DNA of 51,059 nt, from the NCBI GenBank assembly GCA_043820105.1, contig JBDREC010000104.1:1-51059 (forward strand), in the 5' to 3' direction. The notes under the pieces are model-generated. The model did no database searches. It was given only the letters and a program-made list of their open reading frames with translations, and was not told where the DNA came from. This stretch comes from Pseudomonadota bacterium. GTDB taxonomy: Bacteria; Bdellovibrionota_F; JAHFAK01; JBDREC01. Numbering within the stretch: position 1 is the first letter of the stretch; the number at the start of each line of letters is the position of its first letter. This document shows, in pieces, positions 41,191-46,012 of this stretch. The translations under genes and the position numbers were made by a program.

Positions 41191-42711
41191 TTATCCTTTT
41201 AAAAGACTTGTAAAACGTTTCTTTATAAAGTCATTATCTAATGTGGCTAAAAACCATCCTGCTCTTGGACCTTTTTCCTGCCCAAGCATTGAAATATATA
41301 TTGCCCTAAAAGCTTCACTTGGTTCAAGTTCAAATTTTTCTTTTCCCTCGTAGATCAGTTTGTGGAAATCATCTCCTGAATAATTCTCTTGTGCATGCTC
41401 GGCAATATATTCTAAAAACTCTTTATTTTTTTCACTCAAAGTTAAAGCTTCACTTGGAACTTCTTGCTTTATTTCAAAGCGCATGCTTTCTGGAGCGAAT
41501 CTATCAAGCCACTTCCTGGCCCAAAATGCTCTATCAGCCACTGCAGCTTTACTTACAATTTCATAGCCAGTTCTCTTTAATATATGAATGATTTGATCAA
41601 CATCATCAGCAGCAATTTGAACTAGGTTTACCATGTGTTTAAAAGGAACATTGGCTGCCTCGATCCCTCTAATTGATGATAGCTCATAAGCACGCTGATT
41701 CCTGTTAGCATTTTCTTCATCATATTCATTTATAATATTCAAAATGCCAAGACCAGGATCAAAAGTAATTGCTTTTTTAGGTTGAACTTTGAAAACCATA
41801 TATCTTAAAACTTCAGGAGGAAGTACTTCTAAGGTTTTATCAATGCTTAGAACATTTCCTTTACTTGAAGACATATCACCCTGTCCTTTTAAAGAAATCC
41901 ATTCATAAATTATTGGAACAGGAGCCTGGCAATCAAAAACTTCTTTAGCAATTTCAACCCCAGTATCATATGAACCACCGCGAGAGGCATGATCTTTTCC
42001 AAAGGGTTCAACTAATACTTTTAAAACTGACCACCTAGCTGGCCAATCAATTCTCCATGTTAACTTTCCATTCCCTGTTACATCTACTGTCTTTGCTGAA
42101 CCACATGAGCATTCATAATCAATAGAATTATTTTCTCGTGAAAATCCAACAAGTTTTGTTGTGGTCATTTTCTTGCAATCAGCACAAATTGGATTAAATG
42201 GAGACCAATCTTGAGAAATTTCTTTTCCTGTTTTCTTATTTAAAATGCTTGCAATTTCCTCTCTTTTTTCAAGAGCAGAAAAAATTGCATTATTCATTTC
42301 ACCTGATTCATAAAGTTGGCTAGATCTTTTAACTTCCACATCAATATCAAGTTTTTTTAAAGACTCAACAAAGGGAATCAAGAAGTGCTCTGAATAGCTG
42401 TCATGTTGCCCACAAGGGCAAGGAATCCTGGAAATGGGCATTCCTACATATTGTTCATAAATCTCAGCATCTAAAAAAGGGTAAACCTTTCTAAGTGGAT
42501 CAAAATTGTCTGCAATATAATGAAAGGATATTTTATCAGTTTTTTTCTTTAATGACCTAAAAACCGCATCACCAGTCAAAACTTCCCTCATATTACCAAT
42601 ATGGATTTCACCAGATGGTGTGATTCCAGTACTAATTACTATATCTTTATTCCTTGCTATAGCCTGATCAGCTACCAAATCAGCCCAAAAATTCGAATTA
42701 TCCTGTAACAT
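41191..42711 (-). CDS. lysS: Lysine--tRNA ligase, class I
   Basis: FWAD, TPSGEIHIGNMRE (HIGH), GKLTWRIDWPARW, EPFGKDH, MSSSKGN (KMSKS), GPRAG. Confidence 0.96.
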   Translation of the reverse strand: MLQDNSNFWADLVADQAIARNKDIVISTGITPSGEIHIGNMREVLTGDAVFRSLKKKTDKISFHYIADNFDPLRKVYPFLDAEIYEQYVGMPISRIPCPCGQHDSYSEHFLIPFVESLKKLDIDVEVKRSSQLYESGEMNNAIFSALEKREEIASILNKKTGKEISQDWSPFNPICADCKKMTTTKLVGFSRENNSIDYECSCGSAKTVDVTGNGKLTWRIDWPARWSVLKVLVEPFGKDHASRGGSYDTGVEIAKEVFDCQAPVPIIYEWISLKGQGDMSSSKGNVLSIDKTLEVLPPEVLRYMVFKVQPKKAITFDPGLGILNIINEYDEENANRNQRAYELSSIRGIEAANVPFKHMVNLVQIAADDVDQIIHILKRTGYEIVSKAAVADRAFWARKWLDRFAPESMRFEIKQEVPSEALTLSEKNKEFLEYIAEHAQENYSGDDFHKLIYEGKEKFELEPSEAFRAIYISMLGQEKGPRAGWFLATLDNDFIKKRFTSLLKG

Positions 42712-43165
42712 ATTAAATTCCTTTTTTAATTAAACAATTACCATTTTTTCTAAGAAAAGCCACTACAAAACAAAAAAAATCAGAAATTTCAACCATTTTC
42801 GGTGTTTTGGGCATTTATTTTCTAAAATCAGGCAAGTGCGCTCATTTTTAAGCATAGAATTTTAAGGATTTTGTTGTTAATTTTTGCTTAAAAGTAACAA
42901 AAATACTTAGAAAAGCTAACCTGAGCGTTTTTTAGGCTTTTTGATCTTTCTGTGCAATTGTTTGCAGATTCGCTAAGCTCTTATTTTTCCAAACATATAT
43001 GGATTGCTTTGCAATTTAGTTTATTAATATATTGATTCCAACAGTGTTTTAGCTTGAAATATGCTCAAAAGTCTTATTTTGATATTAAGCTCTGTTTTCA
43101 CCACAGGTTAAAATATCCAATGGATAGAAGTTTTTAGGCATTTTTTTTATGCAATAAATCCAGGA

Positions 43166-43180
43166 TGGCATTTAAATTGC
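43166..43180 (+). promoter_or_regulatory. Sigma54 -24/-12 promoter of the candidate sRNA
   Basis: TGGCAT-TTAAA-TTGC; predicted +1 at ~43192-43193, the first base of hairpin 1. Confidence 0.8.
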
Positions 43181-43192
43181 AATCGCTATATT

Positions 43193-43393
43193 ATGAATTG
43201 CTTGGGGAAGCGATATTATGAGGGTGAGCGCAATGCTTGCTCGCCCTTATATTTTTCCATGGCAATTCATTTGCGAGACTTATTTTGATGTTGATCTAGT
43301 CAGTCCTTATAGGACCGGCTATTTTAAACATAATATCTCCTTCTCTTTAATAACCTAAGTTTAAGCAGGTTCGGGTGAACCTGCTTTTTTTTT
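43193..43393 (+). ncRNA. Candidate sigma54-dependent small RNA with three stem-loops
   Basis: Hairpin 1 43193-43270, hairpin 2 43275-43339, terminator 43363-43393; several G-U pairs valid only on +; locally raised GC; no RBS-led ORF. Confidence 0.75.
43363..43393 (+). terminator. Rho-independent terminator
   Basis: AAGCAGGTTC-GGGT-GAACCTGCTT running into a T tract. Confidence 0.9.
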
Positions 43394-43485
43394 ATCTATT
43401 TATTGACTCCAAAAATTATTTTTAGTATGTAATATTTTAATTATTCAAAATCATTTCATTTTCAACTTAATCAAGGAAAGAAATT

Positions 43486-44328
43486 ATGTCATATAAAAAT
43501 GCTGACAAGCCAAAAGATATCTTTATGAATATTTTAAAAATGGCTAAATTAGAAACTCTTAGACTTTCTCCAGGCATTAAAGAATTCTTAGATGCTATTC
43601 CTATTCTAACAAAAAATATTTCAAAATTTGAAAAAATCGATCGCATTTTAATAAACCTTGCTGATTTAAAAAATCAGATGGAAAACATAAAAAGGGATCT
43701 TAGAAACCTTACTGAAAAAATTTCAAATAAAAAGGAAGAACCTAATAACCAAAGACAGCAAAACCAAAATCAAAACCAACATAACCATAAACAACATTTT
43801 TATAAAAAATATGAGCACAAAAAAAGTTTTAATAATAATGATAATTTCAGAAAAGATGATTATAAAAAAGTTGAACCTATTAAAGAATATGATAAAAAAC
43901 CTGAGAGTGCTGGCTTTATTATAGATGAGCTTGGAAACAAAGTTCCAACAAAACCACAAGCTGAAAAAAAGCCTTTTAACAATCCAAATCCTAAACCATT
44001 TCAAGCAAGAAGATGTAAGGTTTGGGGTTGTGAAAAACCAGCATTTGACATGGGATATTGTGCTGAACATTATGAAAAGTTTTATTTACCAAAAACTCAA
44101 ACACCACAACAACCTGTTGGTGCTAAAAAAGTAGAAGCGCCAAATGAAGTTGAAAACATAAAAACAGAGACAAAGATAACTGATCCAAAGACTGCTGCTA
44201 AAAAAACTGTAACTAAAAAGACGACCGCTAAAAAAACAGCAACAAAAAAAGTTGTAGCAAAAACGACAAGTGCTAAAAAACCTGCTGCTAAAAAAGCAAC
44301 AACAAAGAAAATAACAAAAAAGAAATAA
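43486..44328 (+). CDS. Coiled-coil/zinc-motif protein with histone H1-like tail (myxobacterial vegetative-protein-like)
   Basis: N-terminal coiled coil, CKVWGC-x9-CAEHY (C-x4-C-x9-C-x2-H), terminal AKK/TKK repeats. Confidence 0.7.
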   Translation: MSYKNADKPKDIFMNILKMAKLETLRLSPGIKEFLDAIPILTKNISKFEKIDRILINLADLKNQMENIKRDLRNLTEKISNKKEEPNNQRQQNQNQNQHNHKQHFYKKYEHKKSFNNNDNFRKDDYKKVEPIKEYDKKPESAGFIIDELGNKVPTKPQAEKKPFNNPNPKPFQARRCKVWGCEKPAFDMGYCAEHYEKFYLPKTQTPQQPVGAKKVEAPNEVENIKTETKITDPKTAAKKTVTKKTTAKKTATKKVVAKTTSAKKPAAKKATTKKITKKK

Positions 44329-44365
44329 TTCTATTTTTTATAATCTAGCTTCAATTCCAAATTCC

Positions 44366-46012
44366 CTATTTTCTAAATTTATTATGCACCCTAAAATACT
44401 CTTTAAAAGCATCTATCATCTCTTGTTTTTTATTATCATCCCAAAAAAGGGCGCTAGCGTGCTGATCAGCTACAAATTGGATGGAATCCAAACCTTGTGA
44501 TTTGGCACAGAGAAAGATTTGTGTTCTTCTTCTATAAAAATCAATTAAGCTATAACTCATTTCATGTTGAATTGCATAAGGAACTTCTGCCTTAATATTA
44601 GGCAGATCTTCTTCAAGCTTTTCCCCTAGACTTGGATTTTTGATTATCAGGTCAAGAATATATAAAATATTCTTACCATAATTTTTTCTTAAATAAATAG
44701 TCGTTTCACTGGTCAGCTTTGTTTTTTCAAGTTTTTCTCTATAAGAAAACTCTTCTCGAGTTTCAAGACAAGCTTCACTTGTTTTAACAGGTTTAATTAT
44801 TTTTTCTTTAAGAAAAGGAAAGTTTTTTATAACAGCATCAATAAGCTCTTTTACCATAGGTCTATAAGTAGTAAGTTTACCACCAGCTATTGTTACAATA
44901 TTATCATCAATAAATATTTTATGCTCTCTTGAAACAGCTGATTCATTTTTTCCTTTCTCATAAACCAACGGTCGTAAACCTGCATAGCTTGAAATAATAT
45001 CATCTTTGCTTAATTTTGCTTCAGGAAATAAAATATTTAAAGACTCAATAAGATATTCAATATCCTTTTTTGTAGCATAAACATTATCAAGGTCCGCATC
45101 ATAATCAGTATCCGTGGTTCCAACTAAGGTAAATTTATCCCAAGGTATAACAAAAGTTGTTCTATTATCTTTTACTGCTTTCATTACAATAGCATTATTA
45201 TTATTAATCTTATCACGCTTAACAATAAAATGAACTCCCTTTGTAGGTCTTATTTTTTTTGATTCAATCTTCTTTAAAGAACTAAGAGTTTTATCAACCC
45301 AAGGACCAGAACAATTAACAATGACCTTTGCTTTAATTTCAAATTTATCACCACTAATTGTATCAACAGCATTTATTGTGCTTAAATTTTGATTTCTTGA
45401 AAGAATAGAACTTGCTTTAATGTAGTTTGCACAAACAGCTCCATTTAGATGAGCAGAAATAGCGTTTTCAATTGTTAATCGTGAATCGTCTGCAATACAG
45501 TCATAGTAGGATGCACCTCCAACAAGACCTTCTTTATTAAGCATTGGTTCAATTACAGAAAATGATTTTCTATTATATATTTTATGAAGTCCATTGTTTC
45601 TAAATGTTGCTAAAACATCATAAAGCCACATACCACAGGAAATAAGGAATATGCCTGGTTTGCTATTCTTATAAACTGGAAAAATAAACTTACAAGGCTT
45701 TATTAAAGAAGGCATGACTTTTTGTAAAACTCTTCTTTCCTTGCTAGACTCATATATAAGCTTAAACTGATATGTTTCTAAATATCTCAAACCGCCATGT
45801 ATTAATTTAGAAGAGGAAGATGACGTTCCTGAAGAAAAATCATCTTTATCTATTAAAGCCACATTTAAACCTCGCAGAGCAGCGTCACGTGCGGCTCCAG
45901 CACCATTAATACCAGCTCCAACAATTAATAAATCAAAGGGTTTTGTTTTTAGAATTTGAAGGTTGTGTTTTCTAGTTTCATTTGAAAAAATAAAAGGATT
46001 ATTTTGACTCAC
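44366..46012 (-). CDS. glpD: FAD-dependent glycerol-3-phosphate dehydrogenase
   Basis: VGAGINGAG, SGTSSSSSKLIHGGLRYLE, DDSRL, GTTD, AGLRPL, GGKLTTYR. Confidence 0.95.
   Translation of the reverse strand: MSQNNPFIFSNETRKHNLQILKTKPFDLLIVGAGINGAGAARDAALRGLNVALIDKDDFSSGTSSSSSKLIHGGLRYLETYQFKLIYESSKERRVLQKVMPSLIKPCKFIFPVYKNSKPGIFLISCGMWLYDVLATFRNNGLHKIYNRKSFSVIEPMLNKEGLVGGASYYDCIADDSRLTIENAISAHLNGAVCANYIKASSILSRNQNLSTINAVDTISGDKFEIKAKVIVNCSGPWVDKTLSSLKKIESKKIRPTKGVHFIVKRDKINNNNAIVMKAVKDNRTTFVIPWDKFTLVGTTDTDYDADLDNVYATKKDIEYLIESLNILFPEAKLSKDDIISSYAGLRPLVYEKGKNESAVSREHKIFIDDNIVTIAGGKLTTYRPMVKELIDAVIKNFPFLKEKIIKPVKTSEACLETREEFSYREKLEKTKLTSETTIYLRKNYGKNILYILDLIIKNPSLGEKLEEDLPNIKAEVPYAIQHEMSYSLIDFYRRRTQIFLCAKSQGLDSIQFVADQHASALFWDDNKKQEMIDAFKEYFRVHNKFRK

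Follow-up and report, generated by a model that had tools for sequence, protein, structure and literature searches.

A candidate sigma-54-dependent non-coding RNA gene next to lysS in a genome of the Bdellovibrionota_F

The window analyzed here is a DNA stretch of 51,059 nucleotides (nt), contig JBDREC010000104.1 (C104) of assembly GCA_043820105.1, from a Pseudomonadota bacterium that is placed in the Bdellovibrionota_F lineage of the GTDB. The assembly (genome G000) comprises 3.8 Mb in 113 contigs, with a G+C content of 32% and a completeness of 92.9%. An earlier note, made from the sequence alone, had proposed that positions 43166-43393 hold a complete sigma-54-driven gene for a small RNA with three hairpins. 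This candidate RNA gene sits between the divergent lysS gene and a gene for a protein of 280 amino acids (aa), and our analysis provides good support for a sigma-54-driven, terminator-bounded and strongly folded unit on the plus strand. Among the genomes searched, four species-level genomes in total belong to the lineage; G001 and G002 share the order of G000 and G003 shares its class, while further relatives share only the domain. The features at the locus are as follows (ORF, open reading frame; z, score against shuffled sequences).

41191-42711, minus strand: lysS, gene for a class I lysyl-tRNA synthetase (PF01921, E 9e-123)
42712-43165, no strand: non-coding stretch of 454 nt from the lysS start to the promoter, without an ORF of at least 40 aa
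43166-43181, plus strand: sigma-54 (-24/-12) box TGGCAT-N5-TTGCA, with TGGCAT at 43166-43171 and TTGC at 43177-43180
43192-43193, plus strand: predicted transcription start, 12-13 nt past the C of the -12 GC, from the -24/-12 geometry applied to the sequence
43193-43270, plus strand: hairpin 1, 78 nt (-38.0 kcal/mol, z -5.72, 0 of 200 shuffles as good)
43217-43256, plus strand: upper stem of hairpin 1 followed by UUUUU, terminator-like, flagged in two terminator scans
43218-43358, plus strand: 46-codon ORF that fills the predicted transcript
43260-43275, plus strand: second sigma-54-like box TGGCAA-N5-TTGCG, within the 3' arm of hairpin 1 (direct repeat D9)
43275-43346, plus strand: hairpin 2, closed by GAGA/UCUC (-18.0 kcal/mol, z -3.27, 0 of 200 shuffles as good)
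43326-43362, plus strand: C/U-rich linker, the proposed pairing site, with CAUAAUAUCUCCUUCUC at 43329-43345 and CTCCTT at 43337-43342
43363-43393, plus strand: intrinsic terminator with a 10-bp stem (5 G-C), GGGU loop and U9; stem-loop at 43363-43386 (-15.3 kcal/mol, z -4.86, 0 of 200 shuffles as good)
43486-44328, plus strand: gene for the 280-aa protein, the downstream neighbour, with a lysine/alanine-rich tail and a weak HC2 match

The promoter box with its predicted start at the base of a hairpin, the 78-nt hairpin 1, the pyrimidine-rich linker with its CTCCTT, the 10-bp terminator followed by T9 and the roughly 450 bp of non-coding DNA upstream had all been described in the earlier note, and all of them were found at the positions given above. 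The 46-codon ORF, the terminator-like top of hairpin 1 with its U5, the second box at 43260-43275 and the complete ribosome-binding site (RBS) that is read from the complement of the linker are additional features.

Sigma-54 promoters carry GG at -24 and GC at -12 with a fixed spacing (TGGCAC-N5-TTGCW). Strict boxes of the form TGGCAY-N5-TTGCW were found 153 times in the genome, whereas the letter-reversed control yielded none and 40 permuted controls yielded a median of two (range 0-16). The looser pattern TGGCA-N6-TTGC was present at 198 sites, and 142 of these are located in the 12% of the genome outside ORFs of at least 90 aa. On this crude ORF map, from which the count of 142 also derives, the looser boxes point toward a start codon downstream, with 68 nt as the median distance. 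The box at 43166 has the letters that are common among the 142 intergenic boxes. In addition, rpoN is present (RpoN DNA-binding domain, 211 bits), and the sigma-54 activator domain PF00158 gave 33 matches, 31 of them at E<=1e-27, which corresponds to about 31 activators. Because boxes are in large excess over the controls and biased toward non-ORF DNA, and because rpoN and activators are encoded, it is almost certain that strict boxes between genes function as sigma-54 promoters in this genome. The box at 43166-43181 is, judged by its letters and position, very probably a real promoter. Its GG and GC are 12 nt apart, and transcription is therefore predicted to start at about 43192/43193. In the second box at 43260-43275, two letters deviate, and both are seldom met in the intergenic set (A in 4 of the 142 boxes, G in 8); this internal box is probably weak or inactive.

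The 454-nt stretch upstream could provide room for enhancer sites bound by an activator. No shared or dyad motif stood out in the 454 nt upstream of the box when activator sites were searched for, and 14-mers held in common with the upstream regions of other sigma-54 boxes were only AT-rich noise at 42712-43165. A 36-nt direct repeat with 72% identity (43015-43050 and 43386-43421, sharing TTATTGAYTCCAA) lies upstream of the promoter and just past the terminator; its second copy contains TTGACT, a potential -35 of the downstream gene. As to the activators themselves, seven of the PF00158 domains lie in open frames of about 1950-1990 aa (C27:11540, C90:168091, C10:100023, C88:12338, C90:57173, C49:19989 and C64:50359; contig handle and position) and an eighth in a large frame of 1670 aa (C54:15037), which looks like a family of giant enhancer-binding proteins.

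The whole predicted RNA (43190-43393, 204 nt) folds with -72.0 kcal/mol, compared with a shuffle mean of -43.8 kcal/mol (z -6.97), and none of 200 shuffles folded as well. A comparison with intergenic 204-nt windows of the genome, which covered 1560 of 2321 windows on both strands, revealed that 27 of 3120 (0.9%) reach the same stability. In the 446 nt upstream of the box, neither strand is more structured than expected (z +0.41 and +0.35), and structure thus starts where transcription is predicted to start. The earlier note had assigned the RNA to the plus strand from its G-U pairs. This assignment held: the minimum free energy (MFE) fold contains 9 G-U pairs among 63, seven of the nine are in hairpin 1, and the minus strand folds less well both overall (-58.1 vs -72.0 kcal/mol) and for hairpin 1 (-23.9 vs -38.0 kcal/mol).

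Hairpin 1 has a lower stem of 18 pairs, interrupted by one bulge, and an upper stem of 14 pairs; an internal loop of 6 nt separates the two. The lower stem alone, which contains four G-U pairs, has -18.5 kcal/mol, a value that one shuffle in 2000 reached, as did 16 among 8242 intergenic arm pairs of the same spacing. The upper stem and the UUUUU that follows it resemble a terminator, so that a short isoform of about 64 nt would be possible. Hairpin 2 had been described as an interrupted helix; its GAGA/UCUC closure is present, whereas the proposed TATT/AATA pairs are not part of the MFE fold. Its core helix spans about 43288-43331, and GAGA at 43275-43278 is paired in more than 94% of the ensemble while switching between two UCUC partners. 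The terminator does not serve any upstream gene on the plus strand, because lysS is divergent. The helices of the candidate RNA are model predictions from thermodynamics and strand bias.

The linker between hairpin 2 and the terminator is mostly accessible in the ensemble, with unpaired probabilities above 0.9 at 43346-43356 and 43360-43362, of 0.57-0.69 at 43357-43359 and of 0.5-0.98 over CUCCUU. The complement of its CAUAAUAUCUCCUUCUC is AAGGAGAUAUUAUG, which reads as a Shine-Dalgarno (SD) motif, a 5-nt spacer and AUG (AAGGAG-ATATT-ATG), i.e. as a complete RBS. The minus strand opposite the linker has a frame of 11 codons only, and this RBS-like complement is therefore not a gene start. The 12-mer GGAGATATTATG occurs twice in the genome, and one occurrence is the complement of the linker site. 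Complementarity also exists within the RNA. GC.ATATTATGA is present twice, at 43185-43196 around the predicted start and at 43210-43221 in the internal loop of hairpin 1, and its complement CATAATATC is located in the linker at 43329-43337; nine perfect intramolecular pairs (ATATTATGA/CATAATATC) are thus possible, and the linker could be masked. The 5' arm of hairpin 1 (GGGGAAGCGAUAUUAUGA) is RBS-like and, as read from the sequence, complementary to its own linker over nine perfect pairs. Purine-rich leaders with near-identical sequence (GAGAACAAGAGCGCAAGGGAACAAG...) follow sigma-54 boxes at C1:83546(+), C19:1190(+), C36:6102(-), C46:102(-), C79:6265(+), C84:23291(+), C108:41176(-) and C75:29675(-). 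They are complementary to C/U-rich RNAs such as the candidate linker, and the location of several of them at contig ends suggests a multi-copy element.

The reading that we favor, with about half of our confidence, is that the locus is an independent gene for a sigma-54-dependent non-coding RNA of about 200 nt that acts in trans via its RBS-complementary linker. Transcription would start at about 43192/43193 driven by the sigma-54 promoter, and end at the terminator at 43363-43393. Because the promoter is of the sigma-54 type, one of the about 31 enhancer-binding activators would be needed, responding to some signal. Such an RNA would open with a highly stable hairpin at its 5' end, continue with another hairpin and carry, immediately ahead of the terminator, a C/U-rich linker that is for the most part single-stranded. 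Most likely, the linker would pair in trans with the RBSs of target mRNAs, whereby their translation would be lowered; in this model, pairing between the linker and RBSs is the most economical mechanism. The start site, the production of the RNA, its action in trans and repression are steps that we infer.

Several results weigh against this reading. The search for linker targets suggested by the earlier note did not yield a coherent set. When the linker was scanned for duplexes with 3000 translation-start regions, the mean was -9.1 kcal/mol with a standard deviation of 3.7, and the best duplexes (-27.2, -24.8, -24.8 and -24.6 kcal/mol) contained no outlier. The eight best predicted targets (-27.2 to -22.5 kcal/mol) have no common theme; they encode an unknown protein and proteins of the types Big_5, FtsQ, TSP_3, HD-domain, IS200 transposase, GIY-YIG/exonuclease and cNMP-binding/FeeM. 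The two neighbouring genes rank 870 and 1021 of 3000. As to RNA-binding proteins, the Hfq domain had its best match in a 254-aa open frame, where 25.6 bits fell short of the Pfam threshold of 27, and the search for CsrA in the 92.9%-complete genome was negative. The next gene is separated from the box by 304 nt, a value in the upper tail of such distances (median 68 nt) that could also point to a long leader. The 46-codon ORF fits the transcript almost exactly, with an ambiguous codon score below that of 93% of real genes and above that of 96% of intergenic windows.

Conservation belongs to the same side of the balance. Collecting homologues next to lysS or next to the downstream gene, as the earlier note had envisaged for a covariation analysis, yielded none, neither in the relatives nor in the metagenome loci. 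With BLAST, 60 relatives returned no more than two matches, of 29-33 nt. R1, a covariance model of the candidate sequence alone with the fold predicted for it, was run on 40 relatives, among them the three from the same class, and had no match at E<=1; over four metagenome lysS loci and three relatives' loci, it scored 7.7 bits at best. As no homologue was found, the helices are without covariation support. Those four metagenome loci (LysRS identity 54, 48, 45 and 29%) came from a second scan with alignment; a first metagenome scan with LysRS had confirmed no relative. Of the four, one begins 49 nt ahead of lysS, and in one a 430-nt gap lies upstream, where no box was seen by eye. The contig at 48% identity, the one with sequence upstream of lysS, contained nothing similar to the candidate. 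In three independent assemblies of relatives from the same order, L005 (G001:C49), L006 (G002:C41) and L010 (a metagenome contig), the sequence breaks off inside lysS or no more than about 75 nt upstream of it, and these three ends may reflect a repeat or a hard-to-assemble element at the RNA's place. Runs with small shares of the stretch's words (0.17 and 0.05) are labelled groundwater metagenome, a label that was not used to infer a habitat. Four DNA runs gave contig pieces that were short and of low depth, with none across 43111-43312, and the runs listed for 42000-45000 included no RNA run. Within the genome, the candidate locus is single-copy, and the concern of the earlier note that it might be a dispersed repeat was not borne out.

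The earlier note had not recognised the sequence, and the comparison with Rfam 15 agrees: no family reached its gathering score anywhere in the window. A permissive search of 42650-43550 gave nothing better than E 0.37, none of its weak matches is a sigma-54-dependent small RNA (sRNA) family, and no riboswitch or leader family matched there. Identity with 6S RNA (RF00013) was rejected, as the 6S RNA of this genome is located at C33:15518-15725(+) with 65.2 bits and no match was obtained at the candidate. Paralogy with a 178-nt unit at C46:13285, which shares ATG.AATTGCTTGG, was also rejected (best local match 15 nt, E 0.11).

CrcZ and Pxr, both named in the earlier note, are sigma-54-linked RNAs, and GlmY and GlmZ are RNAs of about 200 nt with three stem-loops including a terminator. 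By analogy of design, GlmY/GlmZ appear to be closest to the candidate, followed by the Qrr RNAs, which are shorter (about 100 nt). For glmY, a sigma-54 promoter dependent on an enhancer-binding protein is described, and GlmZ is described as acting by base-pairing (PMC7073468). The Rfam models GlmY_tke1 and GlmZ_SraJ had no match at the gathering score in the window and none at E<=10 in 42650-43550. Furthermore, the candidate linker would mask an SD motif and thereby repress, whereas GlmZ activates glmS, and the hosts of GlmY/GlmZ are Enterobacteria, to which the candidate host is unrelated. A GlmZ-like targeting of glmS was tried and rejected, because the linker reached -12.9 kcal/mol and 48% of 2967 genes were as good or better. 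The Qrr sRNAs of Vibrionaceae are reported as trans-acting repressors with a TGGCA-N7-TGC sigma-54 promoter and enhancer-binding proteins at upstream sites (PMC10162802), and V. harveyi is reported to have the five paralogues Qrr1-5 (10.1101/2021.07.01.450815). No Rfam match to Qrr was obtained at the candidate, and this multi-copy parallel fits a short family of the same genome, described below, better than the single-copy candidate. In Campylobacter jejuni, CJnc230 (FlmE) is presented as an RpoN-dependent sRNA of about 98 nt that represses target mRNAs and is processed by RNase III from the 3' end of the flgE mRNA (PMC11187230). Unlike this mRNA-processed RNA, the candidate has its own promoter. 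The alphaproteobacterial ar14 family (RF02344) and the toxic sRNA of Betaproteobacteria (RF02278) carry C/U-rich anti-SD motifs of the 'CCUCCUCCC' type. The likeness lies in a C/U-rich anti-SD stretch that is presented before the terminator; the candidate itself matched neither family, and we know of no sigma-54 dependence for either of them.

The candidate is not the only unit of this kind in the genome. Among 199 intergenic boxes, 15 are followed by a terminator without an intervening ORF, at unit lengths of about 59-219 nt; one of these units (on C49) contains a small lysine-rich ORF. The units include a short family of ten loci with lengths of about 60-75 nt, all detected by nhmmer at E<=3.5e-9, with the next match at 0.028; further units are single.

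Single box-to-terminator units of about 67-209 nt, no ORF called: C12:77984(-), C68:26559(+), C54:21391(+), C102:16523(-), C108:4370(-), C28:31819(-), C46:13285(-), C4:87989(-)
Short-family members in the genome: C98:6164-6242(+), C105:169-247(-), C105:483-560(-), C80:20870-20948(+), C10:21398-21476(-), C10:114394-114472(-), C24:8163-8241(+), C1:16515-16593(-), C90:207199-207276(+), C90:46286-46365(+)
Short-family orthologues in the two genomes of the same order: G002:C26:12179-12253(+), G001:C99:16400-16464(-)

The units C12:77984 and C68:26559 share GTATTTTTAGCCATAA.CAAAG and may be paralogues. Each short-family unit has its own terminator and, in front of it, a sigma-54 box and a conserved core that is the complement of an SD motif plus AUG. 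Seven of the ten members retain GG as well as GC in the box, and two members are arranged in tandem about 310 nt apart on C105. The core has two subtypes, CAUAAUAUG(C/U)(U/C)CCCC and UUUUUCAUAUUCCUCCUCCUUGAAAAAG. In the UUUUUCAUAUUCCUCCUCCUUGAAAAAG subtype, CUUUUUCA and UGAAAAAG can pair, presenting the CCUCCUCC stretch in a loop. The 30-nt core of this subtype is letter-identical in G001 and G002, behind TGGTAT-N5-TTGCA boxes and before a terminator; the LysRS proteins of these two genomes are only 52-54% identical to that of G000. The best Rfam similarity of the family is ar14, below the gathering score (32.9 vs 58.8 bits), and RF02278 is also sub-threshold (21.2 vs 50 bits). On the basis of these sequences, the ten copies probably represent a new family of anti-SD sRNAs. 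Sigma-54-driven anti-SD RNAs are thus an established habit of the lineage, which raises the prior for the candidate RNA.

A weak resemblance connects the candidate with this family. R1 matched the member at C10:21360-21477 with 31.6 bits (E 2e-4), mostly via the linker and the terminator, which has the same GGGU loop and flanks as that of the candidate. In both cases, the sigma-54 box is followed by AAT.G.TATATTA, and CATAATAT with a C/U run stands shortly before the terminator. In the opposite direction, the model of the short family, R2, scored 6.0 bits at box 1 and AAT.G.TATATTA and 0 bits at the linker with its CATAATAT and C/U run, and the nhmmer search of the short family had no match at the candidate (43160-43400) at E<=1. 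The candidate has some 135 nt of hairpins that the family lacks, and its sequence does not make it a member. It is therefore best viewed as a separate, longer RNA of a shared design.

A further observation concerns the leaders of this genome. Runs of 7-nt repeats of the CTTACGA, GTAAGTG or ACGCCGT types occur between the sigma-54 box or promoter and the SD motif of many genes, e.g. at C68:3942(+) onward (more than 15 copies), C49:29906(-), C41:69953(+), C29:58199(+), C75:14031(-) and upstream of glmS at C19:5678.

Alternative explanations of the locus were weighed against the trans-acting RNA. The first is that the unit is a sigma-54-dependent mRNA for the 46-aa protein encoded at 43218-43358, the hairpins being mRNA structure that gates translation. 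The ORF begins 26 nt past the predicted start and stops 5 nt short of the terminator, with GGGGAAG 7 nt before its AUG; an open frame of 47 codons is uncommon in DNA of 32% G+C (about 2% per frame, estimated by us from base composition), and the box-to-terminator unit on C49 with its small lysine-rich ORF offers a parallel. However, the SD-like GGGGAAG and the AUG are both paired within the -38 kcal/mol hairpin 1, with an unpaired probability of at most 0.15. The word-index search revealed no homologue, and the single match in a full HMMER scan, to a 272-aa tandem-repeat ORF over FPW-FIC, is not credible because its score is inflated by four repeats. The peptide contains one Lys, whereas the proteins of this genome are Lys-rich, so that its composition is atypical, and its codon score is within the lowest 7% of real genes. 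We consider a coding function unlikely.

It would be no less surprising if the unit were the 5' leader of the downstream gene at 43486-44328 and its terminator a regulated attenuator. The gene is on the same strand, its AUG is 93 nt from the U tract without an intervening gene, and the linker can partly pair with its RBS. This pairing is ordinary, however (-10.8 kcal/mol, the duplex at rank 870). The terminator is strong, and no competing anti-terminator was seen by eye beyond a 5-bp AACCU/AGGUU option. Sigma-54 leaders in this genome are mostly short, as the median of 68 nt indicates, the Rfam search for leader families was negative, and TTGACT-N17-TATGTA past the terminator could serve the gene, though it is absent from the promoter-scan list. 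The earlier note had called this gene histone-like and the gene on the other side lysS. The lysS assignment stood, with class I confirmed by PF01921, whereas the histone-like label depends on a weak HC2 match of the protein tail (24.5 bits vs a cut-off of 40). The 280-aa protein combines an N-terminal part without a family, a cysteine/histidine cluster (CKVWGC...CAEH) and this AKK-rich tail. A homologue in G001 is 38% identical over 94 residues; it is placed in a different gene context, and an attempt to establish synteny via this gene failed for this reason.

A third explanation, also improbable, divides the locus into two tandem short units, one from box 1 to the apex of hairpin 1 with its U5 (about 64 nt) and one from the box at 43260 to the final terminator (about 108 nt). 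The apex hairpin with UUUUU is terminator-like and the second box begins 4 nt later, the unit sizes match units of 59-101 nt elsewhere in the genome, the pair of short-family members on C105 is itself in tandem, and MAFFT aligned the internal box, CATAATAT with its C/U run, and the terminator with the short family. In contrast, the 18-pair lower stem would form only in a read-through RNA, and its low frequency among shuffles and intergenic arm pairs makes a chance origin unlikely. Its four G-U pairs speak for an RNA rather than a DNA palindrome. In addition, the deviating letters of the internal box are rare, and the short-family model scores box 1 (6.0 bits), not box 2.

Somewhat less probable still is that the RNA binds a protein or serves as a decoy, in the manner of GlmY or GlmZ with RapZ, or that it takes up the short anti-SD RNAs as a sponge, instead of regulating mRNAs directly. 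The sigma-54 promoter, the three hairpins and the length of about 200 nt recall GlmY/GlmZ. A RapZ-like gene (C8:1183-1644(-), 149 bits) is located just downstream of rpoN, as in Proteobacteria (observed at C8:1183-1644(-) and C8:2212-2688(-)), which by analogy may keep a GlmY-like decoy alive. For a sponge, the short-family core finds a complement in the 5' arm of hairpin 1 (GGGGAAGCGAUAUUAUGA) with -23.5 kcal/mol, and only 7 of 3000 translation-start regions are equal or better. On the other side, the GlmY and GlmZ models did not match, RapZ-like proteins are widespread (7 of 14 control genomes), the linker is not above average against the glmS upstream region (48th percentile), and the stable hairpin 1 hides the putative sponge site. 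Very doubtful is an extended scheme in which the RNA would be a two-faced hub of a sigma-54 RNA network, with the linker masking mRNA RBSs, GGGGAAGCGAUAUUAUGA titrating the ten-copy anti-SD RNAs, and GAUAUUAUG/CAUAAUAUC self-pairing gating its own activity. Finally, the arrangement might be due to chance or belong to an element of the DNA itself (palindromes, a decayed repeat), without transcription of the locus as a unit; this would agree with the lack of detected conservation, but is extremely unlikely given that the locus is single-copy and that four independent features, i.e. box, structure from +1, G-U strand bias and terminator, are aligned on one strand.

Taken as a trans-acting, sigma-54-dependent regulatory RNA, the candidate would belong to a known kind of regulator while matching no known family. 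By itself, it is one unverified case; the conserved short family is the stronger lead and the better-supported novelty. The lineage of this genome leans unusually hard on sigma-54, having about 150 promoters and about 31 activators, in addition to at least 15 short units from promoter to terminator. So far, sigma-54-dependent sRNAs are known mainly from Proteobacteria (GlmY, Qrr, CrcZ and others). If real, the candidate would add a sigma-54-dependent regulatory RNA from a deep-branching uncultured phylum, and a whole layer of sigma-54 sRNAs in such a distant phylum would suggest that the coupling of enhancer-dependent transcription to RNA regulators is widespread.

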